NCBI GenBank assembly: GCA_905178155.1
Contig: CAJINV010000001.1
Coordinates: 14,219,265 to 14,283,264, forward strand
Length of the DNA stretch: 64,000 nt
Source: Amoebophrya sp. A120
Taxonomy: Eukaryota > Protista > Dinoflagellata
Direction: 5' to 3'
In this document: positions 1-41,000 of the stretch, one piece after another
How positions within the stretch are numbered: the stretch's first letter is position 1
Layout: each line of letters opens with the position of its first letter
Notes under the pieces: generated by a model
Databases searched by the model: none
The model's input: the letters and a program-made list of their open reading frames with translations, nothing else
What the model was told of the DNA's origin: nothing
Program-made: the position numbers and the translations under genes

Positions 1-3000
1 ATCTTCAGCACGCAACTTTCTGCCGCTGTTCCTGGCTCTCGTGCTGAAGATTAGTGATAGATCATACACACCACGAACATGAGCGTTACACCAGCATTCT
101 CCTTGCTGCAGGAATCAAGGTTGAGTGACCCAAGCCAGGAAAAAGGACGACAGATTACAGAAGTAATTTGAATTTCTGCGAGATCACACAACACAAGGAA
201 ACTGTGAAAAATTATTTTTTCAATCTTTTCATCAAGCAACGAGCGACTCTTGAAACATCAAGGGTGGGCAACATAGATAGTTAGTACTACTAGAAGAATA
301 ACGAAGCACGTGAGTTGTACATTCTGCCCGGTGTCGCAGCGTGTTGTACCAAACATTTTCCGCGGAGAAGACGACATTTACTTTCTGAATCGGGCAGGTG
401 AGGGCGTACGGTGATGGTCCCGCTATGGCAGATCCAGTAAATCGACCTGAGATGATAGGCAGCACAGGATTTCAAAAATTTTCGGAATATGACAAGGTTT
501 CTTGTTATTAATTTGGTTATTTCGCATTGGATTCAGACTGTTCCAACTCACTGTCACAGCGTCCTTGATCATGAATGAAATATCTTTTTCAATACCCTTC
601 TTCGCGGCTTCGTGTCGCTCGCGTAGGCGTTTTATGATAGTGGACAGTCCCCCTCGCCCAACTATTTTTCCGCACACATAAACGCAAAACTTCCAGCATT
701 TTTCTAGCGCTTTTCAGCAATACGACCTTGCGTGAGAGGAAATCGCATTTACAAGACTTCGCACAGTACTGTGATCCACACCAATGTCGTGCTTTGGTCT
801 GTCAACACATAAGGTTGATCTACGTGTCCTCTGATGTTGTCTCTGTTGCTCGCTCTTGGCCTTGCGCCGTATTAAACTCTACCCATTAAATATTCGAGGG
901 GATGAAGCTGAAGCAAGGGTGGGTGGAGTAGAGATGTCCACCTTGATACGCTTTACGCACCCCGTGATCGCCCCTACCGGTCCTGCTTGGTCTGGGTCGG
1001 CAGGTACGGCATTGTAGTAGGTCTCGCCCCGGCGCGGCACAAAGTAGCAACGGTTGGTGATTGGGTCCCAGAACTCGGTGTTGCCGCTCAACTGGTCCTG
1101 GCGCATCACATACATGCCGTCCCCGTCAGGAATCGCATCCACTGCCACACAAAAGCTTTTTACTTGGTGCCCAGGGTCCACCTGAAGGTTGTGTGATAGA
1201 AGGCGCGCTGTAGGAGATGTTCTTGCAACTTCTTACGATTCCACCACGTCGGTGAACCAATTGCAACGCGACATTCATCGAGAACAGAACAGCAAACTTT
1301 TTGACAAAACAGTGAGCAAAAACAGGAAAACCATTTTGAAAACGTCGAACAAGAAAATCCCTCCTATTAATACTTCCCCCCGCTTCGCGTCGATGTAGTT
1401 GAAGTAGTTGCACAAGAGTATGGCGTGCTCCTCGTAGTCCCCACACGAGATGTCCAGAAAAGTTTTGGAGGTGCACCAGAGATCCACAGCCCGGCCTTCG
1501 AACATCTGCCCGTCCGTCATGAAAGTGATCAGGGAGACGAAGCGAGCGCATTTTTCGATGGCAAAGGGGTCCATCATGTCTGCCACGATGTCCTCGGGTG
1601 GCGCTTGGGGCGTGATGAACCGCGTCACCAGCCGCGACCGGCCCTCGATGTCCGTGCCGAGAGCTTGGGCCAGGTTCTCCTTCACGATGCGATCGGAGCC
1701 TAGGGATGCCATCCACTGGTGCACGTGGTTCAATATGGCTCGGGATTCTTTTCCGGGAATGATCGGCGCATTGCCGCTCTCGGGCTCCGTCAGCACGCGG
1801 TCGAGCGTCACACTGGCAAACAGGAGCATGGGCTCCTCATTCTCTTCGCCTGTTTTTTTTTTAGTTTTTACATTGACGGCGCTAGCGCTTCCTCGTGAGC
1901 ATTGCGCTCGTGAATGACGTTATCCACGAGCGTATACTTACAGAAATATTTATAGTATCTTATCTGTTTGCTTATGCTTCGACTTTCCATGCGTCAATCC
2001 TTTATCTGCAGTTTGTCCCAGCAGAACGTTCTCCAGTGGGTTTGCGGCGTAATGTCAAAATAGGATTTTTCAATGAACCACAACCAAAGTAAGTAATGCA
2101 TAAGCATCAAATAAAGCGTATGATAAACCTTGGGTTGGATCTGGTGGCATTCCTTGTGCCATGCGCTGCTGTGCGGCAGCAGAGGGCGGTTTCTGGTAGC
2201 CGATGATTCCTACCGGCGCGTCGACGCGAAAGCGACCTTCTATTTTGCAGTTGTTTGCCAACACCGTGGGCCAAGGGAGCGCAAACGTCCCCAAATAGCG
2301 CCTCTCTCGCTTGGTGATGACCGCACCGCCCTGATTGCCATAGTTGTTGCTCGACCCGCTCATGGACAGGCTCGCCGTGCCCCCCGCTCCGGTTTGTATG
2401 CTGATCTTATTCCCTGAAAATTAAGCATCCATCCCCATCCACTTTTGCATGACAAACACAGACAAGACTTTTTTGCATGACAAATTGGATGGAGATGGTT
2501 ATTTAATTTTCAGGGAATAGATCTCCGTCTCGTCGAAAACGTTGAAATGCAGGGCGTTCGTGAACGCGTTGAGGGCGTCACCGGACAAAGATACGTTTGG
2601 GTTGAGCCCACTGGCCAGCGGGAAGACGCGGTGCTGGTTGATGTCTGGGTTCAAGCCCGGTATGCGGTACCCGGTGTCTGTTTTCAGCTCCATTTTGTCC
2701 ATGTTTTCGAAGGCAAGTTCCACGACGACCTCGGACACCGTGAGGCCCCTCTGGTTGCGCTCCAGCGCGGAGGGTATCCTCAGCGGCACGTTGTACAGCT
2801 TGGCCACGTTGATGTGGATGCCCGCGCGCTTGGAGCTGGGGTCGTGCAGCCGCTGCTGCATGGCCGGCTTCAGCGGACGCCGCGGCTTCAGGAGCGAGCT
2901 CAGTTTCTGCCACAGTGCGGCCCAGTCGATCTCCTCAGCGTCCTGCCCGTATTCGCGAACGACCGTTTTCACGGAGTACTTCCGCTTTACCGAAGACACC

Positions 3001-6000
3001 ATGCGAGTTCGCGCTTGGATCGCGGCGATGAAATCCTCTACCGCGGTCTCTTCCGCCTCGTCCTGCGAAGGCGGCTCCGCCGCCTGGGTTGTTCCGAAGG
3101 GGTCCGCAGGCGGAGCATCGCCTGTGGTTGGATAGTTCGCAACGAATTCTTAAGCGTCGGTGGCGGAAAGATAAGATCTAGTAATAAGTCGAAGTGCGCT
3201 CCTTGTATAATGTAGTTGTCCTGCTACTTAAGGTCAGATCAAAAAAGATAAACTGCAATATTTTTCAACATCTTCTGCAAAAGTCGTACTTTTCCTCGGT
3301 GTCAAGTCTTTGGGCTTGGGCGGGAGTTTGACTGCGACCGCCGTGCCGTCCTGCGCCGTGCTTGTGTCCTCGCCCGTGAGAATAGCGCGCGCGTTCGCGG
3401 AGATCTGTTGCATGCGCACCTCCTTGTCTGTGGCGGCAATCTGCTCCCCGCCCGCCGAGTGCTTCTGGGCCCGGAAGGCCAACTTGTGAAACCGGCGAGA
3501 CTGCTTCACGTTGCCCCAGTTGACGAATTTCAGGTTGCAATACAGCGACTTCAATGCCGGGTCAAAAGCGGTGGCTTCGGATTTGTGCAGCAACACGTCA
3601 AGCTCGTCGCGGCTTTGCTGTACCATGGGGTGGATCATACCGAAAAGCGCACCCATACGCATACCAGATAAAGACTGAATTTGCATATCCTTATCCATAT
3701 GCTGCGTTCATGGCGTAGTTGTGAAGATGCTGATCCGCAACAGGCAGAAAACAAGCCTGTCATGCGGATTGGAGATTGTATTTGTATTTGTAACTCCCGG
3801 ATGAAAGGGTACTTACAACTGGAGACACCGTTCGAATATTTGTGAAGCAGAAGAACAGACAAGAGCACCAGCATTTTTGTTTTAGTCTTGTCTTGTACGT
3901 GAAAAACTGCCCAAAAAATCTACTATGGGCGTTCTTTTTTGTAGGATAGGGTGGTTTGGATCGAACCGGAGGTCCTCGAGAAGTTGCTGCGTTCGCGAGA
4001 CCAGCAGACTGGAACCTCCGCCGCCAAATGCATCCGCGTTTTGAGAGTCTGTAGTTTTCATGCCTCGTTGGCGGGCAAAAGAACCAAGCGACAATTCAAG
4101 GTTGGGTGCACACCCAACTGCACACGACTCAGGAGATATTACAAAGCCTGCATCATGAAAAAATGGGTCCTTGGAGGAAAGGAAGTTAGTAAAAAATACT
4201 TACTCCGAGGGTCCTTGCCGCCTTGTTTGGAAAACCGCGAAAAAAAGGGCAAGTGGGTTCCTTCTTCAAACGCGCGGTGCAGACTTTCCATGGCCGTCGA
4301 ATCTGCCAGGGGCTGTGGCGGCAAGGCCCCGTCCTTCATCTGGTTGAGCGGCACGGGCCAGAACGTGCGCACCTTTATTACGCCGGTGGTGGTGCTTGTG
4401 TCCTCCATGGCAGACTGCAGTTCCTGCCTGGTTTGCGATTCCCGCTGGTGCGAGCGCGGGGTGCTTGCCGAGGTCCCCTCGACGTAGGTCTGGGTGGAAG
4501 TCGAGGAACGGGTCCCGGCGGCCGTAATCGCGCCGTCGGAGCCAAAAACCAGCTTCTGCCGAATGATCGGAGTGTGCGTCACCCGGGTGCCTTCCGCCGC
4601 TGGAATGGCGATCTGCACGCCACCAATTTTCGTCCACTTCCGTATTCTACCATGCGAGAAGATTCCCAGCGCGCGGGGCACTCCGACCCACACTTGCAGC
4701 TCGATGGTGCGCGGCATCGTGTGCACGCACAGATCAAACGTGTAGGGGCAGGCGGCGCGGGCGAGATCTGCGACCGCCCCGAGGTCCTGGTCTAAGATGT
4801 TACCTGGAATGAAGTGAGCGGAATCAATGGATACCTACGATGCTGCGAGGTGCGACGAATCTAAATAGCCCATTATTTCGCGGAGAGTTGCGTGCAACAT
4901 CGTGATCCATCATGATCTTGATCATCATGGAGGATGTACGTCGCGCAATATCCAAACTTCATCTGCGCTGTTTTTTGTAGATAAGTACTAAGGTTCGCGC
5001 TGGTGCTCCAGGAGTCCCACTGCACTGGCATCGCGCCGGATGTCCCGACTTGCTCTCCGTTGACCACTATCCTGTGCAAAAGTACCGCACTCGTTGTAAT
5101 TACAGTCATATATCAACATCATGCAAATGCATCGCAGATCTACCTTTCTATAAGATGTAGCATGATCATTGTGCTTTTGCTTTTGTGCTTGTGAAAATTT
5201 GTAAAAATGCAGCCATGATGTATAACTACTGCGATGCCGAAACTTTTGCACTGCATAACCACGCATGTGATCTCGACCTTCAGTACCCCACTTTGCAGCC
5301 GGCGTCGACGCTCGAACTCCTGCAGGGAGATCGGGCGGAGCTCGTCCATGTTTGTGACGCGTTCTCTCCTCCAGGAGAGCTCAAAGCGGTACGTGTCCGC
5401 CCCGGGCGGACGCCAGTTCGTTGCGTACCACTCGCGGAGCTGCTGTTCCGCCTGGCTCGGGTCAAATGGCTGCTGCTCCTGCTGCGCGAGGAATTCCAGC
5501 TCTTCGAGCTCCGCCTGCAGGTACTGCTCCACGCGTTTCTGGTCCTCTATGGGGCTCTCAAGCGTTACGTTGAGTGCTGTTGCATGTTGCTTTGTCACGC
5601 ATCAAAGTCTACCTCTACTTCGCGTGACAAGTCATTTAAGTACTTCTCTGTAACGCAAGAGGACGCACAGCAACCTTCCACCCTTCACTGTAGTTGCTAT
5701 TCCGGTGTAACAAACTCACGTAACAGGAACAGTCAACGTAACGCTTGAGTAGACTCCCATATCCTCCTCCGCATTGTGCGAAACCACCTGCGCTTCCAAC
5801 TTCACGGGCGTGCTGACAAAATTCTGCGTTTTGCGCAACGTGCGCAGCTGTTGCCACGTTTTGTACAGTGCGTCAGACACCGCGCTGCGTTCTCGTTTTA
5901 TGCATGGAGCAGATGTCTGTCTGGAAAGTCCAAGTTGTATATGCAAGTGAATTCAGTGAATGACAATGATAACAGCACTGCAAGATTAGCGATACACAGG

Positions 6001-9000
6001 CAAACCTGTCGACAGTTTTTTTATGAAGGGCCGTGAGTTAGTCCCACCGATTCCGCGTGGTCAGCTCCGTGTTTGCATGATCACAGGCAAGAGGACTTCG
6101 CGAGCCTATGGCTCAAATAGTCATATTAGACATAGGCATAGCTCAGACCGCTCATTAATATGTCAGACAAGCTCAACCTCAAGCATGCGACGTGTTGCAA
6201 TCTTCTACAGCCAGACATCTTTGCAATGCATACGCTCCACCTCCGTGCGAATGCTGCGAAATTTTTTCCTTTCCTGTACGTGCAATGCCCACCGGCGCTC
6301 CAGCGCATCCTTTTTCTTCAGCTCCGCGTCGTCCGCGGCGTCGCCTGGTCCGAGCGCATTGGATTGAGGCTGTTGCGCCTGTGCCTGTTTCAGGCTTTCC
6401 AGTAAAGTTTTGCCGTACGCCATCCAGGAAAAAAAAAACGCTACAGTAGTTCATCATACATCGTCGCTCAACAACACTTCTCGACGGCAACACAAGTCTG
6501 CCCTGCAGGACAAAAAAGCTTGTGCTTAAAGATTGATAGTGTGGAGATCTCAACAAGTGAAAACACGCACGAGACGAGACTTCGACGCTGTATTTCGGTC
6601 ATCATGGCAGAAGTTGCACTAGCACCACCTGTTGCCAACGTTTAACTAAGTGTACTAGAAGTACGACGCTAGTAGCTCCTGCACATTTTTCTTGCGATAA
6701 AGGCCACTAAGGCGTCGAACCGGCCGTCGAGAATCTCTATCGGATCTCCTTCTTCGCGGCGGCGGTACTCGTCGTATTGGTACAGGAGTCGTGCGGTGAG
6801 CCGGTCCTCCTCGGAATACAAGGTCGTCAGGATCTCCTTCGCGTTCTTCTCGCGAATGCCCAAGCCGTGCTGAAAAGAGGTAAAGGTGACCGTTTCCAAG
6901 CAGATCTTCAACGAGTACATGTGGTCGGCTTTCAACTGCATCCTTTCCGCCCGGAAGTTGTTCATCCGCTTGAACAGGGACCGCTCGTGTGAGTTCAGAA
7001 ACACTGGCATGGTTTGCCTGCTGGAAACCACTATGGATTGCAAAAATGTCTGGGTCTGGAAAGTTGGAACGTGTAATGCTGGTCTTGCATTCCTGTGAAA
7101 TCTGTATTGCATGACCAAAAACAGTGGTGGCCCCTTATTTCATACAAAAATGCAGTTTCTCATGTGGAGTTCGTATGAGAAGGCGTGCTGCAATCTTGTC
7201 ATGTTTTCCTGCATAAGGAAGTGACTTCCTCTTGCACATTTTAGCATCACAAGTTTCTAGACCCAGACATTTTTGCATTTGATAACCACCTCAAAGTCGC
7301 AAAACTGAATCAGCTGCTCCAGCTCCGCGTAGTACTGCTGCCAGGTGGGCAGCGTGCCACGCTATGGGCTGCAAGTATGTCTGGGTCGTCTCCCGGAGGA
7401 GGAGGAGCGCCAGCCTGTGTAATATCATACCCTTGCAACGCGTTGTAAGTGAAGCCAAACTCTGCTGTGCATGGAGCGGATCAGCGTCAGCACCTACATA
7501 GATTGGCATCCAAAAGCGTCACCCTTGTTCCTGTCATGCAGCTATTTTCTTTGGTAGTTAGTGGAGTTCTTTCCTCATGGAGACACTGTCTAGCGCTACA
7601 AGTTTCCTTCATCCCGGCCCAAACTTAGTTGCAGTGGATACGCGCTTGCGGGCAACGATTTTTTGGTACATGTCTTCCAGCGCGTTTCCGGATTGGGGCT
7701 GCGTCGCTCCTGGAAAAAATAGAGACTTTCATCTTCAGGTGATTTGATGATCCGCAATGGAGGCAAGAACTGTAAAGAAGTGCTCGTCCTTCCAAATGCA
7801 AAGTCATTGCTCTTGGTGCAACCACATCAGATGTAAAAATGAACGAAAATACGACTACAAAAGATTCTTGACAGCCGGAGTTGTCTGATACCATAAGCCT
7901 GCTGCTGTCTCGCAATGACGATCGGTCCTGCGCTACTGTCGCCTCCTACTTGTGGAAACTCGGATATTTGCTGGCACTTTTTGGCCAGGGCGATTTTCTC
8001 GCGCATTAGCTGCAGCAAGAGGCGCCAGTAGTTCCACGGTTCGTGCTCCCGCAAGTTCGCTCGACTGCGAAAGAGTCCGTCGTCTGCATTCAACAGTGCG
8101 CGGACAAAGTGGTCGTAGTGCCAGTCTTCGTGCAACACCAGCGGATTTGTCGTGAAGGCGTGGTGGTGCAGCGCAAGCCAGCGCACTATCCACAGTAAAC
8201 GCGGCGTACAGGTACAGTTGGGATGAACCATGCACAACAATTAAACTTTCAGACCATCAAAACCATACTCGCATGGGAATCATTGTAAGAATTCATCTGG
8301 CGCTCCTGACTAAGACTACGTAGTAGGTTTTGGACGAGTGGCAGTCAGTGGCAAAAACATCACATTCACAGTTCTAATTTTGTATCGTCATGCATGTTGT
8401 AGCTGTACTCACCTGTACGCGCAAGGAGCGCACGCATGGGAATGGGAAATTTGTATTCCATACGTGAGAGGAAGCCTTCGCTGCCTGCCAGGGCGCGGAC
8501 GCGGAGCAGAAAAGGATGCAGGGGTATCATGGACATAACTTGCTCTTCGTTTTTGGTAATCGGACTTTGCTCCAGTGTTGGATTGCGACATCTCGTAACC
8601 ACGGTTCGGTCCCCACCGGCACTGCGCGTCGCCTTCTTCGCGCCTCCGACGCGAGAGAACATCCCCGCTCCAGGGTACGGCGCAGAGGAATTGCGACCCC
8701 CATTTCGTGGAGGTGGATACGAGGCTGACATGGCAGTGTCGCCATTTGGATTGTTGTTCCCCTGTCCACCGTCCATGGTTCCGAGGCCCGGCAATTGCTG
8801 CGTTGAGCGCGGGTCTTCTTCCTTCTTGCTGGATCGCGTTACGCGGCTCACGAGACCCCCTAGGGCGGCTTTCGTGCTGTTCTGTGGTGAAATTTTGAAA
8901 CGCAGAAATTTTATTTTGGTTTTACCCTTCACCCATTGACCTCGCACATTAAGTGTACAAATATTAACGCTGAAATTGTGAGGCATGCACGAGATGATAG

Positions 9001-9768
9001 TGGATCAAACCGAAAATGTGATGGTATCCACCAGCGCAGCATGTTTATTACTGCAAGATCAGCCGCTTTTGATCCAGTGGTCTGCTGGTTGTCACCTCCA
9101 CCAGGTGGATTGTTTCCCGCGCCGAAAGCCGGTGTCTGACCCCCTTGCTGCATGCCGAACCCCCCGGGGGGGCCGGTACCGGACCCACCGAGGTTCATCC
9201 GTGGACTGGGCTGCGTGGCGGTGCTGCCAAATCCGGCTCCAGGTCCACCGAACCCGGGCGTGCTCCCCGCGAAGGAGGGTGGTATCAAAACGAAGAAAAT
9301 AAATCTCCCTTAACTTTCCTCACATTTTCTACTTCGTTCTAGTGCTGGGCATAAAATAATCAGAATTTTGCGACGCCCTCGAGATTGGCGTACACAAATC
9401 AAAATAGAAATTAGCAATTGGCTGCACCATTGAGGGATCGCAGAACTGCGCTTCTATTGATTGTGCACCAGTAATTGCTGCATACGCATCGAGAAGTTTG
9501 ACAAATCCAATATCCATGGTGGGTTTGAAAGACGTACCATTACAGATGGCCTTCAGAATGCTGCCTGCAGCTCTTGGTTTCCATATACTTATGTGCAAGA
9601 CAAGGCCGATCATTTGTGGCCACAACAAGGAAGTCGGCATGGCAAAGTTTCCCTTGGAGGATGGAGTGGGGAGATTATCTTCCTCATAATAGGCTGCTGC
9701 CCTCCGCCAAACGTGGCGGTCGAGGAGGAGGACCCCCCATACTGAAACTGGCTGGAGTTGTTATACAT
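1..9768 (-). CDS. CC2D2A: CC2D2A/MKS6-like ciliary transition-zone protein (multi-exon; 3' end probably runs off the window start)
   Basis: Exons carry CC2D2A/CEP76-type C-terminal motifs in order: HFNVFDE, ERRYLGTFALPW..IEGRFRVDAP, CARFVSLI, DLWCTSKTFLDISCGDYEEHAILLCNYF, AIPDGD.YV, EFWDP, CPIQKVNVVFSAENVWYN. A C2-like segment and coiled coils lie upstream. Exons join in frame across GT-AG introns (e.g. 1182-1373, 1850-2128) and TIR elements. The start ATG at 9768, whether the low-complexity N-terminus belongs to this gene, and several junctions are uncertain. Confidence 0.8.
2408..2519. mobile_element. TIR introner-like element, family D (112 bp), direct repeat GATCT
   Basis: GATCT|TATTCCCTGAAAATTAA...TTAATTTTCAGGGAATA|GATCT, with a perfect 17-bp inverted repeat that extends imperfectly. 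Removal with one repeat joins FDETEI to SIQTGAGGTASLSMSGSSNNY in frame. Confidence 0.92.
5068..5257. mobile_element. TIR introner-like element, family B (190 bp), direct repeat ACCAC
   Basis: ACCAC|TATCCTGTGCAAAAGT...ACTTTTGCACTGCATA|ACCAC. Removal gives KVEITCVVNGEQVG in frame. Confidence 0.9.
5548..5761. mobile_element. TIR introner-like element (214 bp), direct repeat TCCTC
   Basis: TCCTC|TATGGGG..CTCAAGCGTTACGTTGA...TCAACGTAACGCTTGAG..CCCATA|TCCTC, with a perfect 17-bp inverted core. Removal gives NAEEDQKRVEQYL. Confidence 0.92.
5899..6232. mobile_element. Degenerate TIR element, family A (334 bp), imperfect repeat CGTTT/CGCTC
   Basis: Left end TATGCATGGAGCAGATGTCTG versus reverse complement of right end TATGCATTGCAAAGATGTCTG. 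Removal gives RTEV(E/K)RERSAVSDALY. Confidence 0.8.
6421..6699. mobile_element. Strongly decayed TIR element (CAT...ATA ends, repeat TACGC/AAGGC)
   Basis: Weak inverted repeat ATCCAGGAAAAA versus ATCGCAAGAAAAA. Removing element plus 5 bp joins FDALVA to (Y/F)GKTLLESL in frame. Confidence 0.5.
7032..7284. mobile_element. TIR introner-like element, family A (253 bp), direct repeat ACCAC
   Basis: About 31-bp TIR, TATGGATTGCAAAAATGTCTGGGTCTGGAAA...TTTCTAGACCCAGACATTTTTGCATTTGATA. Removal gives QFCDFEVVSSRQTMP. Confidence 0.93.
7363..7640. mobile_element. Degenerate TIR element, family A (278 bp), repeat CACGC/CGCGC
   Basis: Left TATGGGCTGCAAGTATGTCTGGGTCG versus right reverse complement TATCCACTGCAACTAAGTTTGGGCCG. 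Removal gives MYQKIVARKRGTLPTWQQYY. Confidence 0.8.
9283..9691. mobile_element. Degenerate TIR element (409 bp), repeat GGTGG/GGCTG
   Basis: Left TATCAAAACGAAGAAAATAAATCTCCC versus right reverse complement TATTATGAGGAAGATAATCTCCC. Removal joins two Gly-rich exons in frame (GGGQQPSFAGSTPG). Confidence 0.65.
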
Positions 9769-16814: not shown

Positions 16815-17957
16815 TTACACTTGATTTCCCATCTGCGACGTGCCACCTCCGCCCCCGCTGTCGCTGTTTCCAAAAACAGGTCGGTCATCTGCGAACTCGA
16901 CGTAGCTGCTCGCGGAGCTAGATTCGAGGTGCTGTTTATACTTGTTCATTGCGAAGTAGCTTCCCGCGCCCACGAGCACTAGCATGAATGTGACCGTCCA
17001 GTAAGAGTCTGAGAACAACACATAAGCCACGGCGTCGATAAACAGTAGCGCGCAGAGAAAGTAGAGAAAATACTGTCGAAGCATCATTTTTTGCTGCAGC
17101 TGCCTCGAAGATTGGCTAAACTGGCCGGCAGTGCTGTTGAGAGTTGCGGACTTGTTGTCCAGGCCCCGCCACTATCCGGGCCAAACATGCCGGGCGTGTT
17201 TGGAAAGTTTATTAGACTTCTCATTGTACTACACCTGCTCTCGCATACTTCATCAATTCCCTGTGATGCGTGTTCCGGAACACCACCACCAGCGCTGCAT
17301 CTTTATGCTGCACAGACGAGACCACTTATCATGCGGGTTATGCACTACAGAACCGATGAAAAGCTTTCCATGCGTAGCTACATGCTGTCACTGCAGTCAG
17401 GTGAAGGAGAACGTATAGTACTCCTACTCGCTCATGTGTAAGCATCACAACACTTTCCAGACACAGACATGTTTGCAATTGGTAGCAACTGGCCATCGCG
17501 GGCTACCATCTGCTGCTATCCCGAGTAAAAACGTCCGCGCCCCCCAAACAATTTGCCATGCAAATCTGTATGCCAAAGCCGAAATTGTGTATCTGCGTAC
17601 ACTTATTCATTGCGTCTCATCATGCGCAACTCCATGCTCGAATCACATATCTAAATCAGGATGCCAAAAATCGACCTGTGAAGCGACTGCACTAGAGACC
17701 CAACGCTGTCATGCACCTGTTTGCGTTTAAGTTTATTGAGTTTGTGTAGCAAATCTGCGATCTCAATTCTGGGGACGAGGGGACGTCGTGTTTGCGCAGG
17801 ATAGCTGCATAGACTGCTTTAGTGTATCCGTCGCCGTTTGCACCTGGCCGCGAGTCTGCTCCAAAGAGACCATCCTCGAAGGACCGCTGCTGGTATTTAG
17901 ATCGTCGGCGGTGCTGCCGATGCTACTTCCGCCCGGTGCCGTTGACGATGCCGACAT
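16815..17957 (-). CDS. R-SNARE, synaptobrevin/VAMP family, 3 exons
   Basis: Spliced sequence LEQTRGQVQTATDTLKQSMQQMVARDGQLRGLDNKSATLNSTAGQFSQSSRQLQQKM fits the synaptobrevin coil with its zero-layer Arg, and is followed by hydrophobic membrane segments. Confidence 0.88.
17173..17484. mobile_element. Degenerate TIR element, family A (312 bp), repeat GCCAC/GCAAC
   Basis: Right end AGCATCACAACACTTTCCAGACACAGACATGTTTGCAATTGGTA matches family A but ends GTA. Left end is TATCCGGGCCAAACATG..GTGTTTGGAAAGT. It lies inside the SNARE motif. Confidence 0.82.
17517..17803. mobile_element. TIR introner-like element (287 bp), direct repeat GCTGC
   Basis: GCTGC|TATCCCGAGTAAAAACGTCC...GGACGTCGTGTTTGCGCAGGATA|GCTGC. 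Removal gives KQSMQQMVARDG. Confidence 0.85.
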
Positions 17958-28731: not shown

Positions 28732-31028
28732 TTACATTCCCAGCTTCGCTTTTAGCGCCCTGTTTTCCGTTTCCAACTCGGCTATTCTTGCGTGCGCCTG
28801 CGCCAGCTCCTCCTTGTACTCCCGTATTCCCTTGGGTTTTGCAGCGGCGCTCCCGTTGGACGCAGACGCGAATACGCCGCTGCCGTCCGTGCGGCTCTCG
28901 CGGTTCATGCTCATGCGCGTCCGCGGCTTCTTCGCGCCGCCCTCCCACTCGTCGGCAGTGAGCGAGGCGATGGGCGCGAGGGTGTCGGGGTACAGGTCCG
29001 ACTGGAAGGCCTCCGATTTTCGCGGCACGACGAAGGAGATATAACAGTGCACAACTCCCCCTCGCCCTCATTTGTCATGCAAATTACCCAATCCACGTCC
29101 ACCCTTTTTCTCTTGGCACTGTTTGCATGACAAGTTTTGGTACCCCAAATAGCACTACACTCCAGTGCAAATTTGTTAAGCAAAACCGGCACTGTTGCTG
29201 ATGCTTGTATTGCTGTTCATGCTATACAAATGAGGGGGGGGGAGTTGTGCACTGTCATAGGAGATCGCCTGCACCGCCCCGGACTCGCATTTCACCCCGC
29301 GCATGATCTCCTTCTTCGCGGTGTCCACGGCGTACTTGGGGAGGAAATCGAACCCCTTCTGGGGCGTGGTGGACCGGTAGTCGGACACGTAGTGGAAAAA
29401 GGGCGCCTCCTCCACCATTTCGAAGTACTTCACGTTGCCGTCGCCCTTGCCTGCCAGGTACAGCATCCGCGTGTCCGCGTCGTAGAAGGGGAAAAGCGCG
29501 CCCGTTCCCTGATCCAGGGGCAGGAGGTGCAGGGGCTCCGACCCGGCGGGCTCCGCGGTGAAGTTGCGCAAGTCCCACACGCAAACCTGCCTCTCCGCCA
29601 TACTGCTGAAACCGGTCGTAAGTACTCGGTCTGTTTATTTGATTTTGTTGTAGGTCGAAGATGATGAACAATTTGCGCTCATGCAAACGAATTTTTGTAC
29701 TTCTACTTTTAAAATAGCGATTGCGATGCAACTGCGGAGCTATGTAAAAGAAGCCTAGAACGACGATCGCAGCGACCAGGAAAGCGAAACCACATAGACA
29801 TGTCGTAACAGAAGTGGCTAGCTCGCGAAATTGCCAAAATTGATGGAACAGACTCCAGATGAGTTTTCTTTTCTATCTAGTATGAAGATCTGAAAAATCA
29901 TAAAAAAGAATGTTTTCTGCTCCTTCCTACTCACCTGTTCGATGGTTATGTCCGTCCAGCCAGAGTGTTTTCATGCTCTTGACTCCTTCGTGCGCCCGTG
30001 TGAGTGCCACCACCCCTTTCTTCACCCTCGGATCGATTATGTGGACGAATTTGTCCTTGCAGCAAACCGTCAGGAGGTCGCCATCGTGATTCCACCTGAT
30101 GTGCTGTAGTAGGTCCGTAAAGGGCACCTCAAGCACGGCGTCTTGGGTCTCCGTGTTCAATATTCTTACGACATGGTCGTAAGCGCCCGTGGCTACTATC
30201 CCGTTGGCGGCCGGATTGTGGTGCAGAAGACTTACCTGTGCTTTTGGTGTTGCTTGTGGCACTCGAAGTTTGCTGGCTTTGTGGACGTGCTTGTCCCCAT
30301 TAGCCTCTCTGATTCAGCAGCACGTCTAGCATATCGTGGTCGAGACGATACAAAAAGATCACACAGAAACCTTACTGGACGTAAGGGCGCGGACAAAAAA
30401 GAAAATCATGCTTTCTCTTTCATTTCATTATCGACATGTACCTTCTTTGGGTGTGGTATTTCGCACACACTTTGCTTCAAGTTTTCCTTTAGGCCTCCGT
30501 CTGGAATTTGGAATATCCTAAAGTGACAGTCTTCACTGACAGACGCGATCATGTTTTCGTCGAAGGGATTGAACTCGAAATCGAGTACCTATGGAAGGTG
30601 TGCTTTTTCTGACCATCAAGAACTGAGTACTTTTCCTAACGAAGTGAATGCGATGAAGTAGTGCTGCAGCCAAGTAAGTTAAAACAGTTGCTGCAAGAAC
30701 CATGGCCGACTTATGATGTTATGGAATAAATAAACAAGTAAAAATCCTGCTTCTTCTTCTAGGCGTGGAGAAAAAAAGTTGCACGTACCCCGCCCTGGTG
30801 TCCGGAAATGACCGGTATGCTTGGTGGCATTCTCCCTTGTTGTTTCCAGTCGAGTAGACATATGTTGCCTCCGCCGCCGGTACCCCATGGTATGGCGACA
30901 AACTGGCTGTTTGCCTTCACGCCGGAGGACTCCGATACCTTTGTCGCCGGCCTCAAATCTTCCCATTTTGCCTTCCAGGGGTCGCCCCACACGTGGCGAA
31001 AGCTACTCTGCCGGACGATGTTTGCCAT
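28732..31028 (-). CDS. Coronin (WD40 actin-binding protein), 5 exons
   Basis: [80 protein letters not shown] and a C-terminal coiled coil. Three GT-AG introns plus one TIR element. Confidence 0.96.
29040..29259. mobile_element. TIR introner-like element, family C (220 bp), direct repeat GGAGA
   Basis: GGAGA|TATAACAGTGCACAACTCCCCC...GGGGGAGTTGTGCACTGTCATA|GGAGA. Removal restores coronin [10 protein letters not shown]. Confidence 0.95.
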
Positions 31029-32045: not shown

Positions 32046-35000
32046 TTATTCATACTCCCATTCGACATGTAGAGGCTGCGCACTCCAACACCACGGAGAA
32101 AAACGGTTCGCGAGCGGTGACAGAAGCTGAATGCCTTTCGTTGTCGCGCGGCAACGTGTTCCACCAGTCCCGGCTCCTGCACACAATTCTTGATATTCCT
32201 GACCCTGGTCCGCATTGTTGTCGTTCCCTTGCTTTTCGAAGTGCTGGACCCACACTTCGCAGGCAAACGTCTGCAGCAGGTGGTTGGCCTGCTCTGTAGC
32301 TGGTACTCGCAGCGGATTATTGTCGAGCAGTGCGTCCGTGGAGTAGAATTCAGGATTCTCTTCATCATCCGGCCCCTTCCAGAAGGGGTTCCGCGTGCGA
32401 GACAGTGCCATCCTCGTGGGGCTGCGTTCCTCGAAAAGTTCCGCAAGCACCCGGCGCACGCGCCAGTTTTTAGCAGGTGAAAGAGCTGCCAGGTATGCGA
32501 AGCAAAAGTATCAGTATCTACATCTTTTTCGTGCGCTTGCAGCTGCGCGGGGACTAGAAACGAACTTGATGAGTTTTTTCTATGCACGTGAAACGCAATC
32601 ACTCTTCAGGTGTACTAAATGCTTGCACCTTGTTAGGTCATCATGATCATCATGTCGGCCGTGGACCACGACACAAGGTGAAGCTGCAAAGCTGTATGAG
32701 AAGTGGCCGCAAGTGACACGCTTGCGGTTGCGATACTTTTGTGCACGCCCTAGCATGTTGTCTTCATCTGCCGTCAGGCCTCCTGCAGCGGTGCCGGTAG
32801 ATTGGCTGTCAAGTAGCCCAGGGTCTCTTGCGGCAGGGGCAGGAGAGCCGGAGTTGCTGCTCTTGTCGAGGTCCCCACCCGCGAGCGCGCAAACGTGTTG
32901 CGAAAAGGCCGGCGCACCGCAGTAGTCGGGTTCAAGTGCGAAGTCAAGAAGTTTACTACCCACCGTCTCATAGCTCCAGAGCCATCTACTGCACCCGTAG
33001 TGTCGCGTTCTGGACGAGGTGGCTGCCTTCGCGCATCTTTTAGTGTGGCTCGAACTCGATTCATGATCTTCATCAACTGTTTTGCTCGGGGTCGCAGCTG
33101 GTCGTGGTCCTCGTCGCGAAGATGACATAGGCGTAGTGCTACAAGAACTCACTCGCCTGGCCAGAGCGTGGAACGCTTTCAAGTTCATGTTGCAATTGTC
33201 CAGCTCGACCCCCCACGAGATGCTCGCAGGTCGGAGCGCTGCAATTTCGTCTACTAGCGCCCTTTGGCCGCCGGCTGAATCGTCCGCCTCCCACTCCGCG
33301 CTGATCGAGACTCTCTGGTGTCTCAGTTCGATGGTGAGCTTTCGTGCCAACAAGAGCTCGCGGACCTCCGCTAACTTCCGCATCGTCCGGGCGAGGAATA
33401 GCTGTACCACATCGCCGCTGTTGTGCGTATAACCCGGCGCGAGTCCGTCGTGCTCCGAGACGTGGATATCCAACTGCTCGAGATACTCCTCCAGTGACAT
33501 GCACGCCAACGCGTGCAGCTCCCCTGGAAGGCAGGGGCAGACCTCTCCGGGTAGGAGTTGGTCGGGGTCAATGCAGTTGTGCCACATCGTAACGTTGCCG
33601 ACGTCGGTACTGAAGTCTTCGGGTGGGAGAGCTTCCGTTTCGGTTTTGCCAAGCTGGATTTTTCTCTTATTGCGCTTACTCTTATTCATTTTCCGATTAC
33701 TTGTTGTTTGCACCCGATTTTGATTTTCTCTGCTATTTCTCTGTTTTACAGGGAGCGCGGGGCAGAAGTCAGAAGTTGCTGCGGAACGTGCACCCGCAGA
33801 AGCTGCTAGAGGGCTATTATGTGCGCTAGCGTAGTCTGCATTTCCCGGCGCCTCAGCGTCTGCTTTTTCAGCTTCGTCCCCTGAGTGAAAGATGCTGTCA
33901 TTTTGATTTTCTCTACTTGCAGCTTTCAAAGATGGTGCGGTAGCTCGTCCCCCCGCCTGCTGGCCCGGCTTCTCTACTGATGAAGTTACTACATTCGAAC
34001 GCGAACACGCAGGCCCAGCTGGAATTAGCTTCCCGGTGAAAAGATACTCTATAAGCGCCACCCGATCAACCTTCAGACTGAAGCAGCAGACGGGCTCGAA
34101 GTTTCGCCACGAGGTAACATCTACTCCGGGTTTCGGTATCCACTTTGGATCCTTCATCTTGAGGGCGTGTTTATCATGCAAGTATCCTGTTCGAAAGCCA
34201 CCGCATTTCTTGGCCCATAACAAAAAGTTACTCGTCGCACAGATACTAGCAATACCGCATCATTCAACAGCTCAATGCGATATTAGCACTTATTAATGGC
34301 ACTTACATATTTATTTTTATACATGATTGAAAGGAGCCGAAGTTCCTTTTTGTTTTTCCTCATCTTTTGCTTTTCCCATTTTGTTTGCAAAGAAAATACG
34401 TACCATGAATGCGCTGAAGGAGAAGCGCGACCAGATGTTGCTTCTGGGGGAAGCCCTCCTGCATGAGGCCATGTCGTCTCTGGATATACATACAGCCGGC
34501 AGGCTGCTTATAGAAATCGATTTCTTATTTTGGTTACTTCTCGCGATGCCAATATGCGGTGCTTTTATTCTATTTGTATTTGATAAGCGCTCGACAACAG
34601 CGGTGACAGTAAGTGGCAGCTCAGAATCGTCGCCAGGATTTATCTCGCACGTGGGAATTGTAGCTGATGTCCCGCTCTTTTTGATTTCGTCTGCCTCTGC
34701 CCAGGCACCGGCGACGTGAGCCCAGATTTTCAGATACTTCGCCTCTAGCTTGCTGTCGCCGAGTTGCAGTGGGGAGAGCGTTTTTGCCGACTCTGCTGCC
34801 CTTTCTAGCACGTTAACGCACGAGGCAAAAAAGTTGCGAAGGCAAGAACGAGTATGAAAGAGAAAGCTGCAATATCAATGTCAGCGCCACCCGTCAACGA
34901 TGCTGATTTGCGCCAATACACATCACACAAACAAGCGGAGCACGAACAATGCAACAAATGGCCAAACGCAAGCGGATGTTACTTTTAGACATAGGCATAT

Positions 35001-38000
35001 ACCACTTCTCTCTGCAACAGTTCGTTGTGCGTTTTGCTCACAATATCATCCACATCTTATCAGCTGCAAATTATGCGCCAAAGTCTTGGAGGGCGCATGC
35101 TCGCTGACATTGCACCAGCTATAGCGGCCCATATCGAGTCCAGATTGAAGAATACCAGACTTGCACAACGTCCTCTAGTGGGGTGTTTTCTTGCCCGAGC
35201 ATATCGGCGATTACGTTGAATTTTGCCACTGTGTATGCTTGCGAACAGAAACCGACGAAGGTCGTGCTCGTTCTTTCGCTAGACGATGAGTGCTGCTCTT
35301 TTTGTTCCACCTGGGGCGTCTGCGAAGATTGCGAAGGAGTCATACCGTTGGGCCCACGATATTCACTTGATGAGTTTGCCTGCTGTGCAGTGTGGTTTTT
35401 GGTGCGTTGTTTGTTCGCGGACAGTCTCTGTTTGTCACAGCCTCCCGTCGAAGACAACGTGGTAGCTGCGCCATTGTTCTTATCGGTCTTTCCGTCGGAT
35501 GAGCCTTGCGAACCGATCGGGGCAGCTTGTTGCGCGTGTTTTTTCTCTAGTGGAGGAACAGGTGAAACCCACTGCGCGTTCAGAAGCTCTCGAAAGTCCA
35601 AAAAATCGAGCTGGACGTGGGTGGACCCTTCCGTTATTGTCACGTCAGTTGGCGGACCCCAAGAATCGAAGGGGTGGATTGTTATTTCTTGTCGGATCTT
35701 CTTCGCTGATGCGCACACACCATCTTCGCTGGTGCTCGTCGGGCTGGACATTTTTTCCTCCACAGGGGCGTTGCGGTTTGTCATCTTATTGGCCTCATCT
35801 TCCCCCCCGCAGCGTCTTGTTTATGAGAGAGCACAACTCGTCCCCTGCCCCCCTTGTTCATTTGGATATGCAAAACACCAAACCCACTTTTTGTGTATCA
35901 ATGGCGCGTTCTAGTTCTTGAAGCACTGAGTGCGTGACAAATTTTGATGAAACCTCGTCAAAGGGAAGTGCAGATTTTGATCTGGTATGCGGAGGCAAAA
36001 TTATTTCTGCCGTTGCTTATGCTTGCGTTACTGCGCAACTACATGCCCTTCAAATGAGAGGGAAGTGGGGTCGTTGTGCACTCTCATATTGTTCGCAAAT
36101 CCAATACAAAAGCGTGTGTGCGAAATTCATGTTGATGGTCGTCTCGAAATGTCCTCGGGCTGGACACTTCGCGGTGAGCAGGGACAGTGGAGGAAGCGGT
36201 GTCCTTGTCCTGGTGTACGACGTCCCTCACCGTCGGCGTCTTCGTTCCTCTGACGCTTTTCCTTTGCGCATCGCAACAAGAACCGGAAATAGCTTTTTTC
36301 TCAAAGGTGGGCCCAATTGTGAAAGGCTTACGTCGCTTAGTTCCATCTTGAGATGAACCGGCTGTAGCTGTATGCCAAGAAGAACGGTGGACCACGACGT
36401 CGTCGAGACTGCTGCTCTGATTTGAGTCAGGATCAGGTGTCTGCTGGGCTGGTGACTTTGAGTGCGTGGAAATCACGCTTCTTGTCGAGGACGGATCGTC
36501 CTGCTGTTCGTTTTCGTTCTGCTTCATCTTCTTGAAAGCACCACCGCTCTCCTCGATCCACGTCAGTTTTTTTGCATCAGTTTCCGCGGCCAAAAGACCC
36601 CGACTTTCCATTTCCTCGCGCAGTATCCGATGGGCCTCCCCTAGCTGCGCGTCCGTTGCATCTAGACTGGGGTCGAATGTCTTTTCGCCTCTTTTCAGCA
36701 TCTCCCGCTTCCGTTCTTGCAACTGTGTTTTCCGTTCCAGTACATCGATCATCACGCTGCTTAAAATTTTATCGTCGGTGCAGCTCTTTACGGCTCGCTT
36801 CAATTGCGCTGTGCTGTCGTAAGAAATCTGGAATAAGTCCTCCAGCTGCCTTCGCGCATGTTCCCCATACGCCGCTAGGGCAATCTTTCGGGTATCTATC
36901 GAGTCAGGCTTTACCCTCAGAGCGAGGTCAATGGCGAGCGACATGGGTCGCGCCTGCGCGGACATGCATGCATGGCGCAGAATCTTGGTCGCAAGGTCGC
37001 GCTCAACGCCGAAATAAACCCACTTGCTATCGGGATCGACACCCTCATTCGCTTTGGCTCTTTGGATGTGCTTGAGATCGTAAATCGTCGGACAATCTCT
37101 TGGCATCCGCCAACCTGGACCTGCGGAAGTAAAGCACGTATGGTTGCGGGCATACTCCTGAAGCCAGTCACAGCTGTCGCTTAGCGCGCACAACGCCTTT
37201 GTGTATGAAGTCGCCGTAAAACCCAATGTGGCTGCGAGATTGAGATGACCGACAGATGTACCAATCATCATCGTATCGAAATCATCCATAAGAATCTTGA
37301 TGATTTTGCTAATCGTCTGCATCTGCCTCTCAAGAATCTGCTTCCTGAGGTCCGTTCTCTCTTGTCGGAGCTTGTAGTTCTGCAGCCGCAACGTAAACAT
37401 CTCTTCTCGGTGCTGTTTCATCTGCAGGCGCATTTTTTTCTCCGCGCGTCGCCCGGGGCGCTGCGGCGTATTTGGGAAATCATTCAGATCATCATCTACA
37501 TCTTTCTCCTGCTCCTCGATATCGTCTAGACTGGTTTCTTCAGTCTGGGCCGAGGTTGACGCCGGTGTAATTAATCCTTTCGAACAAGCACCGGATTGTA
37601 GATCCGTGTTCTTCTGAGCAGCGGGAACGAGGAGTCCGCTGTGCTTGCACTCTAGCTCCTGCTGTTTGTTCCTTTTCTTTGCAGCACTTTCGTCAAACGT
37701 GGCACGGACCAGTTGAGCGTCTTCGTTGGCTCGCCGTCCTTCTTGGTCCTGAGCCGCGCCACCAGCTGCAGCACCGCATGCGCCAAGTTCATCTTCGCGC
37801 TGATGCGCATAACCTCCTAGGCGGAACAGAATACGCACCGCTTCTCTGGTCTCCTGCTTCAGGGGCGACGGGGCGGGCACTGACGGTTGTGCGTTTGGGT
37901 CTGTACAAACCTCATCAAGTAGCGTTGTAGTCGGGGAGGCGGACGAAGTGGACGGCTTTGTGCATTTGTTGGCACCAGGATCATCTCCTGCTGCGCAGAA

Positions 38001-41000
38001 GATTTCAGTAAAGTATTCTCTCAGCGGGTATCGGCTTGGGCTTGTTCGTCCTGTAGTGGCTGGTAGCGACGCGACCGACGGCGAGCCGAGGTTTCCACTG
38101 CCTCCCTGCTGTTGAGGATTCCCTTCTCCTTGTTCCGCCTGTTCTTCTTCGTCGATATTCAACGAGCCCTGATCTCCTGGTAAGGCGTGTCCGTCGGCAA
38201 GCCTACGGATGTGCTTCTGAAAACGCACGATGAAGCCGGCCGCCGACATGTTGTCCAGTATGCTTCTGTCCGAGTCTGAATTGACATAATTGTAGCCCAT
38301 TTTTGCCTGTATCTCGTCCTGTTGTAGCAACAGTGCGAAAAACACAAGCTGCTCGCGCCAGGCTTCAACGACATTCGGGTCAAGCAACGCAGACACACAG
38401 CTCTGTAGCAAGCCGACGTGCATGAGTTTGAGGCCGTCTGCCCTCGCATAGAACGTGGGAGCCTGCGCGCAATTGGCTCCTCGTAGTTCGCCTTCGCGGT
38501 CTTGCTGTATTCCTTCGGCAAAACTGTTGTAAAGTAAGTCAGGCGTCGCGAGGATGTAGCCGGACTCTTCGCAAAGTACATGCGCGCACTGGCGCCTGGT
38601 TTCGTCGTAGTGGCAAGTTTGGAATAGGGCGCGCTGGAAAAGTGGCTTCGCTGCAGCGTAATCTTGGTGGAGAAGACGAGATCGGGCCTGTTCCAGTGCC
38701 ACTTTGTGCAGATCATGCTGCTCAACATCAACTACATGGTAATGAGCTTGCTCCTTCTCGTCCTTTGTAGAGCTGTTCGCTTTACTTTTATCTTCACATC
38801 CTCGCGAGGCAGGTCCTCGCGAGGCAGCTCCACCCGAACCACTAAAACTGCTGGACTGCTCTTCGTTTCCTAAAGACATCACGCCTGACAACAGCAGGAC
38901 TGCCGCGAACCCGAATGACCCGGTTGCCCTCATCCCTTTTTCTGTCACGTCTGCGGCAAAGTTTTCGAACCACTTCAGTGTGCCGGTTCCGCGATCCCAT
39001 CTCTTTCTTGTCGCTTCTTCCTGGAGTTTCTTTTCCTTTTTTCTTGTTTCCACATTATCCCGTGGCGAGTGAAGTCTTCCACCCGCGGGGGCGTCCCGCT
39101 CCCGACGGAGAATTCCATTAGCTGCACTGCTCTCCACGCCCGCTTCGTCGCTGGAGACACGGCAATAACCGTACAGTGCTGAGTCCAAGATAACTCCCGC
39201 TGCTGCTCCTGCGTACCGCGTCTTCCGAAAGGCGACCGCGGCCCATATGAGCTCTTTACCGATCAAATACACAATCGCATCTGGCACAGCCTCGTTCATC
39301 GCCCGCAACGCATCACCGAGAATTCGCCAAGCGCGAATATTGTCGTAATCCAAAACCGCAGCCTGTAGACATGCGCGGATATCCACAGAAAAAAACCCAC
39401 TCCCATCCATTTTTTGCATGACAGACACAGGACAGGAGTTCATGCAAGCTTTGCATGACATTGACAAATTGGATGGGGATGAGCCTTTTTTTGTGGATAG
39501 CGGATGGCGTCCGGGTATAGATTGAGCTTGTAAAGACACAGCCCGTAACTCGCAAGCAACCCCGAGTACTCCTGCCGATATTCGACGGCTTCAAGCGCAC
39601 GGCGACAGCAGGCGAAACGCACCTGGCAGAGTGCAACGAGTTCATGCGGAGTGAGGATAGAAAATGGATGTGATGAGGATGGTGCGACCGCACCAGTGCA
39701 GACGCCATCAGGATCATCGGCCTCTCGTCTCATGTTCGGTTCTTCATCCACGGGTCTCGATGAATGGCGTCTCACCTCCTCTGTAATTGTCGACCCGATT
39801 CTCAGCCACTGTAATGCCGTCTTTGGGTATTCCCAATCCAATATCGTGGCGTCGACCGAGGAGCCGCGCACCTCGATTTTGAAAGGGACACAGGCTGTCG
39901 TGAGATTTTCTTTCTCCTTCATCTTATTTCCTGGTGCAGCTGTCTGTTTTTTTCCTTTCGCCACCGGCGCAGTGCTTCTTCTTGAAGATGCAGCTCCAGG
40001 AGCTTCTACTTCGGCGCCACCGATCATTGATGAATCGTTGGTGCTGGTCGTAGGTGTCGCATCTTGTGGCACTAATATCGGATCCAGAATTCGCAAGCCC
40101 TGGCCAACGACGTAGTTTAGCTTTGTCTTTTCTGCTTCTTCTTCCTCCTCATGACATCGTGCCCAGTGTTGGCGTTGCAGCGCCGCTCGCTTTCGGTGCT
40201 TTTTTCCTCCTAATTCTCTTTCCTGCGCCTCCGGCTTTTCCTTTTTTCTTGTCATTTCGATCTCTCGTAGCCCGTCTGTGGCACAACAAGCCTTCTGTTC
40301 ATCGTGCGATTGCGTCTCGTTGCTTTTCGAAAGAGCATCCGTATTCTCTCGTCCACGCCTAGACGACGGTGTGTGGAAAGCCTGTTCATCTTCACAAGAG
40401 TCGCACTCTCGGCGTGCGGAAGTGGCAGTGTTCACAGTGGCCTCCGGCGGCTTTGGAGTGGCTGGCGTTTTTGCAGCTAGCTCAAGAGTGATCCCACTTG
40501 AGGCAGGAGCACCACTGCCCAGCGATGGGAATAGCCTGCTCGTCTGGCGTTGGTCCTGGGACTCGGCCTGGTACGACGTTTGTAGTAAAAGAACAGGAAT
40601 GCACTCACCACACAGGCTTTCGAAAATGAACGACGGACCGGAGCTGTTTTTGGGCCCCAATTCCTTTACTCGTCCAAGGAGCTGGTACAGCGTTCGAGGC
40701 GGTTCTGGTCTCTGGTGTGCCTGACCACTTGTGTTTTCAGCTTTATCTTTGAGACGTTGATGACCACGGTGGAAAAGCTCGCGCTCGCCGCTTTGCGTCG
40801 TCGCTTCAATTAAATCTTGAATCCGTAGCGTGAGAAAAAAATCACCATTGTCGCGGTGTTCGTGTTCCGTAGGGCTAGAGGGTGGCTGCGGCTGTGCAGG
40901 CTGAGCGGTGGAGATACCACACTCATTCTCTTGCTTGCTACTAGCGCGCTCGTCAGAATTCAATTTCGACGCACCGTCTTGGAACTCCTGCATCTCCGCT

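Follow-up and report, generated by a model that had tools for sequence, protein, structure and literature searches.

Introners of the TAT...ATA type in a 64-kb stretch of the Amoebophrya sp. A120 genome and their removal from RNA together with five nucleotides

Non-canonical introns are known to populate the genome of the dinoflagellate Amoebophrya sp. A120. Farhat 2021 (PMC7789003) counted 29,850 introner copies in 1954 families with a mean length of ~240 nucleotides (nt), reported RNA-seq-supported removal and proposed a hairpin model. According to that study, the inverted repeats comprise 8–20 nt and begin with TAT, after which come seven bases of variable sequence and a run of A; the direct repeats measure 3–5 nt, with 5 bp given for one example (legend of Fig. 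S19). Most spliceosome subunits as well as U2, U4, U5 and U6 were found in A120, while U1 small nuclear RNA (snRNA) went undetected; the borders and the removal mechanism of the introners were left open. Gozashti 2025 (PMC12130899) distinguished 58 A120 families, most of them classified as 'TIR DNA, unknown' (TIR, terminal inverted repeat). Family 19 was assigned a target site duplication (TSD) of 5 by manual inspection, and family 65 is Mutator-like with a TSD of 8–9 bp. A strain from Karlodinium has GT-AG introns, and U1 is present (PMC12005148). Here, we describe 23 elements of the TAT...ATA type in a stretch of 64,000 nt of A120 DNA (contig CAJINV010000001.1, positions 14,219,265 to 14,283,264; hereafter the window) and their removal from RNA.

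The element class is already published: the window elements are non-canonical introns of Amoebophrya sp. A120. They reside in the A120 genome, leave the RNA without GT-AG borders, carry TAT inverted repeats and a 5-nt direct repeat, and form families. An initial annotation of the window, made from the letters alone, had pointed to Amoebophrya, and rightly so, as exons are 100% identical to the annotated A120 proteins P0001, P0070 and P0073 (one exon each). The TAT start, the inverted repeats and a direct repeat of 5 bp have all been published for A120 (PMC7789003, PMC12130899). The introners of Farhat 2021 share with the window elements the TAT inverted repeats, the direct repeats at the boundaries, removal from RNA and the multitude of families, and the families of Gozashti 2025 likewise are TIR DNA elements in A120 genes. 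However, in contrast to the repeats of 3–5 nt with variable position reported by Farhat 2021, removal in the window comprises the element plus 5 nt (hereafter +5) in 16 of 17 annotated introns and in all ten elements among the RNA joints listed. A single rule is not stated in the portions of PMC12130899 covered here, and neither the internal motif GCATGACA described below nor unused GT-AG options appear in the text of PMC7789003, whose figures S19–S25 could show them. Constant +5 removal, probably with a fixed register that ignores an adjacent AG, and a shared internal motif represent a testable refinement of a known class, which did not turn up in our literature searches.

Three further systems resemble the window elements. 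Ginger transposons, which include Tdd-4/5, possess TIRs, Tdd-4/5 produce a TSD of 5 bp, and Ginger transposases are integrase-related (Bao et al. 2010, PMC2836005). However, Ginger termini read TGTNR and the TSD is mostly 4 bp, whereas the window elements end in TAT, have no TGTNR terminus and encode no transposase. The nonconventional introns of euglenids also lack GT-AG and have paired ends with set helix spacings (PMC12501133, PMC11282704). Their code, N3-CDG...CHG-N5-6 and then a purine (Nomura et al. 2025, PMC12501133), differs from the TAT/ATA stem of the window elements, in which the base following the cut is not limited to a purine. By analogy, the window elements may work like euglenid introns despite this deviation. 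Finally, the introners of Micromonas and Aureococcus and the non-canonical introns of Fritillaria derive from TIR- and TSD-bearing elements resembling miniature inverted-repeat transposable elements (MITEs), and their removal takes away the equivalent of one repeat (PMC11282704). These use defined dinucleotides (GT/GC-AG; AG-AC, AG-AT), whereas the window elements share no acceptor dinucleotide and do not follow the U2-type pattern of a GT/GC donor and an AG acceptor.

Removal of the elements plus five nucleotides from RNA

The RNA analysis was based on assembled transcript contigs of the runs X3 and X4, for which 15 of 42 joints are listed. We regard both as spliced RNA, because the same contigs skip five GT-AG introns. 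At all ten elements among the joints listed, the RNA lacks the element and exactly 5 nt. Nine of these joints are present in both X3 and X4 (elements 2408, 3633, 5068, 5548, 5899, 6421, 7032, 17173 and 17517; elements are named by their first position, Table 1), and the tenth (14972) was obtained from pieces of X3 contigs. Between positions 1000 and 7300, the listed joints number 12, five of the GT-AG and seven of the TAT...ATA type. An internal 145-nt skip in X4, also among the listed joints, was treated as another copy. The RNA joints thereby bear out the initial annotation, which had claimed that introner-type insertions are removed as element plus one repeat; it had named retention of the elements or GT-AG joins nearby as the contrary outcomes, and the contigs skip element plus 5 nt instead.

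Annotated proteins provided an inventory of introns that was not chosen by motif. The genes for P0070, P0073 and P0001 contain 31 introns, 14 of the GT-AG type and 17 non-canonical. All 17 are TAT...ATA elements, 16 of which fit +5. Across the first gene of the window, 13 joins yield 1252 amino acids (aa) without a stop, as compared to 236 aa for the unspliced sequence. The A120 gene annotation was built from transcript alignments (PMC7789003), and these three proteins may therefore not be independent of X3 and X4. For the coronin gene (element 29040), the +5 join reproduces P0001 and leaves no gap at the join in 28 of 28 aligned homologues, whereas the +2, +8 and -1 joins disagree with P0001. 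The length of the homologous proteins at this site, including that of A25, matches +5 in this protein-level comparison.

Removal of the elements restores the reading frame in the coronin gene, in a synaptobrevin gene (Pfam PF00957) and in a metallophosphoesterase gene (Pfam PF00149, E 4.5e-4, below the family cut-off), in the latter bringing back the GNHD motif when element 14972 is taken out. The initial annotation had stated that excision of element plus one repeat restores the frame every time. This holds for coronin, VAMP and phosphoesterase; at element 9283, annotated P0070 has one residue more than the +5 join gives. Frame alone cannot separate +5 from +2 or +8; the RNA joints and the homologues do. 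Most elements contain stops in all three frames. At 34853, removal of three elements gives an open frame of 1977 aa versus 1832–1842 aa if 34853 is retained or mis-cut.

The flanking repeat itself also has a length of five. For 22 elements, identity at length 5 averages 0.88 with 13 perfect repeats, a value inflated by partial selection of this set at ≥3/5 identity, while lengths of 3, 4 and 6–10 give 0.25–0.31 and at most one perfect repeat. The 11 perfect repeats counted previously were recovered among the 17 elements listed at that time. Taken together, we consider it virtually certain that the elements are A120 introners and that they are removed as +5.

Two further observations concern RNA. 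Contigs of RNA type pile up on element interiors at 6706-7339, 12412-13679, 14948-15581 and 16850-17483, with a summed depth of up to ~890 versus ~3–40 on exons; the RNA assemblies thus contain numerous copies of other loci, either unspliced or excised. In the raw RNA run X9, 71–86 reads carry the 32-nt element end 12848-12879 next to other flanks and no window exon is covered; these reads may stem from another locus or strain sharing the 12848 family, unspliced or expressed. The raw RNA run X10, which like X9 bears the same species label, covers no window exon either, and neither run is informative on splicing.

Inventory, anatomy and origin of the elements

All 17 elements of the initial annotation and the decayed element 6421 were located, and their start positions agree with ours. 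Five elements were added, four by scanning (633, 3633, 12447 and 35822) and one from the protein-intron inventory (8187), giving a total of 23. Sizes range from 112 to 409 bp, and no transposase open reading frame (ORF) is present inside any of them. A strict scan (TA...TA ends, arm match ≥13/20, flank repeat ≥4/5) returned 14 matches in the window, 11 with a perfect repeat; the same scan of 20 block dinucleotide shuffles returned 0–5 matches and 0–1 with a perfect repeat. Relaxed scanning produced 42 rows, among which ~20 weak matches were set aside as duplicates or likely chance. Every host gene examined is read from the minus strand, which agrees with the co-oriented gene clusters published for Amoebophrya (PMC7789003).

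The element ends are bipartite, consisting of TAT, G or C at position 4 (38 of 44 ends), variable positions 6–8 and an A-rich block with A at position 12 (40/44); position 2 was forced by the scan. Among 22 elements, the two arms pair in 20–22 at positions 1–3, in 13–15 at positions 4–9 and in 19–20 at positions 11–14. Furthermore, ten of the 22, belonging to different families, together contain 16 copies of GCATGACA in both orientations, for example within 2446-2480, 12892-13020, 29074-29130 and 39415-39460, as compared to 0 copies in the other 58 kb of the window. GCATGACA is possibly a transposase-binding or ancestral motif. The proposal that TIR sequences differ and that geometry is the constant was thus correct only in part, since the ends share A12 and G/C4 and different families have internal GCATGACA in common. 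Young elements are predicted to fold strongly, with z down to -13. Searching the window against Rfam gave 0 matches at the gathering score.

Several findings speak for mobility. Window elements in unrelated genes are linked by blastn into families, and at the termini 7032, 12848 and 15135 the match to contigs or reads of other loci stops exactly at the terminus or no more than 1 nt away. As foreign copies end at the TAT/ATA termini, TAT...ATA corresponds to the mobile unit and the 5-mer to host sequence. TIRs, a flanking duplication of constant length and the missing transposase ORF are MITE-like features. For A120 family 38, an integrase-like ORF candidate with TIRs and '5-bp TSD, TA/TA Termini' has been published (PMC12130899). 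A single type of mobilising enzyme, as put forward in the initial annotation, would be one possibility. An origin of the elements from transposons is therefore highly probable in our estimation.

Insertions are distributed patchily, with 11 elements in the first 10 kb and none detected in the long coding-like stretches 36089-39379 and ~52900-64000; the former holds an exon of 1095 aa (36090-39374), and coding sequence beyond 53 kb appears unbroken. Element 14972 encloses a second inverted repeat (15009-15112) that has TA ends and is flanked by a repeat matching at 4/5; it could represent either a nested element or a palindrome within 14972. An intergenic-like segment at 46120-46170 shows a run of ~12 A followed by GGGCGGCGCATCGGGG. 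The canonical GT-AG introns of P0070 (42-9690) measure 149–279 nt, which is near element size, and a number of them may descend from ancient elements whose ends have since changed to GT-AG. P0070, which we take to be CC2D2A-like, is listed in Table 1 with 20 introns, a count that leaves out one spurious inventory row.

Table 1. TAT...ATA elements and annotated host genes in the window. Joints are RNA joints with the number of nucleotides removed; 'additional' marks elements beyond the initial annotation.
Feature	Position	Strand	Size (bp)	Flank repeat	Remarks
Element	633..948	-		4/5	annotated P0070 fits +5; additional
Element	2408..2519	-	112	5/5	joint 2402>2520, 117 nt, X3 and X4
Element	3633..3948	-		5/5	RNA 3' end ATC; joint 3627>3949, 321 nt; additional
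Element	5068..5257	-	190	5/5	joint 5062>5258, 195 nt
Element	5548..5761	-	214	5/5	joint 5542>5762, 219 nt
Element	5899..6232	-	334	3/5	joint 5893>6233, 339 nt, both=2; cut ≤2 nt before TAT
Decayed element	6421..6699	-		3/5	RNA 3' end ATG; joint 6416>6701, 284 nt, both=1
Element	7032..7284	-	253	5/5	joint 7025>7284, 258 nt; blastn-related to 12848, 17173
Element	7363..7640	-	278	4/5	mismatch at repeat position 4; annotated P0070 fits +5
Element	8187..8462	-		2/5	basis annotated P0070; additional
Element	9283..9691	-	409	3/5	two tandem TAT at RNA 5' end
Element	11028..11293	-	266	5/5	annotated P0073 fits +5
Element	11344..11619	-	276	5/5	annotated P0073 fits +5
Element	12447..12692	-		3/5	related to 29040, 35822; P0073 fits +5, cut ≤3 nt before TAT; additional
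Element	12848..13099	-	252	5/5	arms 93% identical over 30 nt; fold z -13.2
Element	13143..13394	-	252	5/5	P0073 fits +5
Element, metallophosphoesterase gene	14972..15135	-		4/5	pieces of X3 contigs at 14270-14967 and 15137-15829; cut ≥1 nt before TAT
Element, synaptobrevin gene	17173..17484	-		4/5	ends GTA (RNA 5' TAC); joint 17167>17485, 317 nt, both=2
Element	17517..17803	-	287	5/5	joint 17511>17804, 292 nt
Element, coronin gene	29040..29259	-		5/5	strong terminal stem; fold z -7.8; +5 join gives annotated P0001
Decayed element	34853..35133	-		4/5	weak arms; basis frame only
Element	35822..36088	-		5/5	basis strict scan and frame only; additional
Element	39380..39499	-	120	5/5	basis frame only; blastn 72.5% over 80 nt to 2408
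Host gene P0070	3..9768	-			1859 aa; CEP76-type domains; 20 introns in window, 11 TAT...ATA type; extends past window start
Host gene P0073	10763..13642	-			377 aa; 7 introns, 5 TAT...ATA type
Host gene coronin (P0001)	28760..31026	-			467 aa; 4 introns, 1 TAT...ATA type; outer coordinates approximate

Position of the cut within the repeat

Perfect repeats mask the position of the cut, and imperfect repeats expose it. Judged by the RNA junctions, the intron includes 0–2 repeat bases before TAT at 5899 and 17173, 1–2 at 6421 and at least 1 at 14972. Weakly, these four junctions place the cut within the repeats, with either 1 nt ahead of TAT and 4 nt beyond ATA or 2 and 3 nt, respectively. The annotated joins of 12447 and 8187 are compatible with the same register. 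Element 9283 has two tandem TAT at its RNA 5' end. Of all joins within ±12 nt, only the one running from 1 nt before the inner TAT to 4 nt after ATA yields the P0070 peptide, although the +5 join is in frame as well. Going by the annotated protein, this join removes 411 nt, which equals +5 counted from the inner TAT. The rule of +5 from the outermost TAT, which the initial annotation implied, consequently describes 16 of the 17 annotated introns but not annotated 9283. At 7363, the alternative registers are synonymous, and proteins thus cannot decide between them. In-frame GT-AG joins hug both 7363 and 8187, but annotated P0070 uses neither.

GT-AG ends were found in none of 22 elements in any of six registers, with one GC-AG possibility. 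At the 1-nt register the donor reads N-T-A-T-(C/G); GTA begins four of the five RNA-defined canonical introns. We slightly favour one fixed register (1/4), in which the intron takes in 1 nt ahead of TAT and 4 nt beyond ATA. No publication stating a fixed register was found in searches of the text of openly accessible literature.

Two candidate lines of evidence were discarded. CATGAC was rejected as a branch point: it occurs in both orientations, its distances vary widely, and the spliced element 2408 has no copy on the RNA strand. The published splice-dinucleotide tables were rejected as support for 1/4 because a simulated tie-break alone reproduces them. BLAT resolves equally good alignments by a best-match tie-break rule; when tie-breaking toward GT-AG or CT-AC was simulated, the result correlated with the family 1 counts at r=0.97, as compared to r=0.94 for random element ends, and the fit was obtained for any repeat length from 3 to 8 (r 0.96–0.97). 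In these tables, family 1 has NT at the start in 67% and AN at the end in 65%, which at first sight favours the 1-nt register. As tie-breaking reproduces the published spread of end dinucleotides, the spread reflects sliding inside the repeat, is no evidence of real variation and leaves the register undecided.

Proposed route of insertion and removal and its alternatives

Our favoured explanation, in which we have moderate confidence overall (an estimate that weighs the steps rather than their product), is that A120 introners insert by a 5-bp staggered cut and are removed by a relaxed spliceosome. A non-autonomous element would be mobilised in trans by a DDE, integrase-like transposase that makes this staggered cut, with the ends TAT-(G/C)-N6-7-A-rich and the internal GCATGACA copies as putative binding sites, and repair of the cut would duplicate 5 bp at the target. 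The mature RNA lacks the element and 5 nt and thereby regains the length and frame it had before the insertion, whatever the phase. Within the repeats, the cut would fall at 1/4 or 2/3 (nt before TAT/nt after ATA), probably at 1/4. In the 1-nt register, the donor would read N-U-A-U-(C/G) with U+2 and A+3 as in the usual GUA donors of this genome, and the acceptor would be defined by its spacing to the paired ends rather than by AG. Removal is likely carried out by a spliceosome with relaxed end recognition. We prefer this route because the donor resembles the GTA starts of canonical introns, and on this comparison of sequences we lean narrowly towards spliceosomal catalysis.

Several points weigh against this explanation. 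Farhat 2021 disputes general mobilisation by transposases and gives direct repeats of 3–5 nt and, in the Fig. 3 legend, splice positions that are variable or unknown (PMC7789003). Gozashti 2025 splits A120 introners among several transposable element classes, and the automated TSD calls are mostly 2–6 among 56 of 58 A120 rows (PMC12130899). Donor position +5 is C in 12 and G in 8 of 22 elements, a poor fit to the usual donor, and no branch-point candidate emerged among the window elements. The invariant TA at donor positions +2/+3 arises partly because the scan required TA, and as TA is present in both arms, it may reflect the transposase only. The fixed register draws on four junctions in assembled contigs from one study code, and by our own arithmetic four registers drawn at random and independently would agree with one another in ~18% of cases. 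Moreover, 1/4 is placed above 2/3 because of one annotated protein, perhaps derived from the same RNA data and possibly mis-annotated. Finally, the ends of 6421 have approximately zero predicted pairing and the element is still spliced exactly, and a G-U strand bias of arm mismatches is non-significant (27 vs 16 gapped, p=0.13). RNA-level selection on the stem was thus dropped as a candidate, with G-U versus A-C mismatches at 14:13 ungapped and 27:16 gapped. The initial annotation had proposed structure-guided removal, which neither result bears out; guidance by the predicted structure is plausible.

The strongest competitor accepts the same origin and replaces the spliceosome by an endonuclease-ligase that would use the TAT/ATA stem as a ruler for the cuts at both ends, a route suggested earlier for the nonconventional introns of euglenids. 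It would account for the lack of an AG or GT requirement in any register, for the in-frame GT-AG options ignored by the annotation and for the pairing of the arms (positions 1–3 and 11–14); U1, undetected in A120 (PMC7789003), and the Euglena code, which sets spacers from a helix (PMC12501133), point in the same direction. However, the ends of 6421 are not predicted to pair and the cut is exact all the same, G-U pairs show no significant strand bias, and the annotated donor of 9283 goes with the inner TAT and not with the register of the arms, suggesting recognition of sequence. We consider this route possible but doubtful.

Alternatively, the spliceosome could remove the elements without a fixed register, the place of the cut within the repeat differing between introns. 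The variable or unknown splice positions of the Fig. 3 legend (PMC7789003) would agree with such sliding, against which four junctions are too few. Nevertheless, these four junctions and the annotated joins of 9283, 12447 and 8187 all fit one register, and aligner-style tie-breaking reproduces the published end-dinucleotide spread with the correlations given above, making a sliding cut unlikely.

Template switching of reverse transcriptase is a known artefact at hairpins with short direct repeats, a setting that the elements provide, and the RNA evidence consists of cDNA-derived contigs only; but that real mRNAs keep the inserts is very improbable, given that most elements stop all three frames and interrupt conserved proteins, that the coronin join is gap-free against 28 homologues, and that 6421 is skipped with a 1-nt overlap and no hairpin. 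Excision from DNA in an expressing stage, as for the TA-bounded internal eliminated sequences of ciliates, would suit the TA ends and the precise removal, yet it appears more improbable still: the assembly contains the elements, unspliced copies of other loci are plentiful in the RNA-type contigs, and sequence words of 4000-13900 are present at 0.96 in two runs and at ~0.41 in four, as expected for DNA versus spliced RNA. None of the runs listed in this comparison is recorded as RNA.

Since the elements have been published already, our finding adds little as a discovery. Returning to the favoured spliceosomal route, its most specific form, which we put forward tentatively and rate as somewhat short of probable, would be one exact code: the intron would run from 1 nt before UAU (donor N-U-A-U-S, GUA-like with +1 free) to 4 nt after AUA with any bases, ignoring an adjacent in-frame AG, the published dinucleotide diversity would be aligner sliding, and one integrase-like transposase with TA ends that binds GCATGACA would have seeded most families. 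If so, splicing would reverse the 5-bp target duplication at any insertion site. A single register, if true, would mean that the acceptor is chosen by distance and not by AG, and would offer a sharp test between an adapted spliceosome lacking U1 and a non-spliceosomal route resembling that of Euglena. It would also explain how a transposon can land harmlessly anywhere in coding sequence, and would settle where tens of thousands of introns in A120 begin and end.

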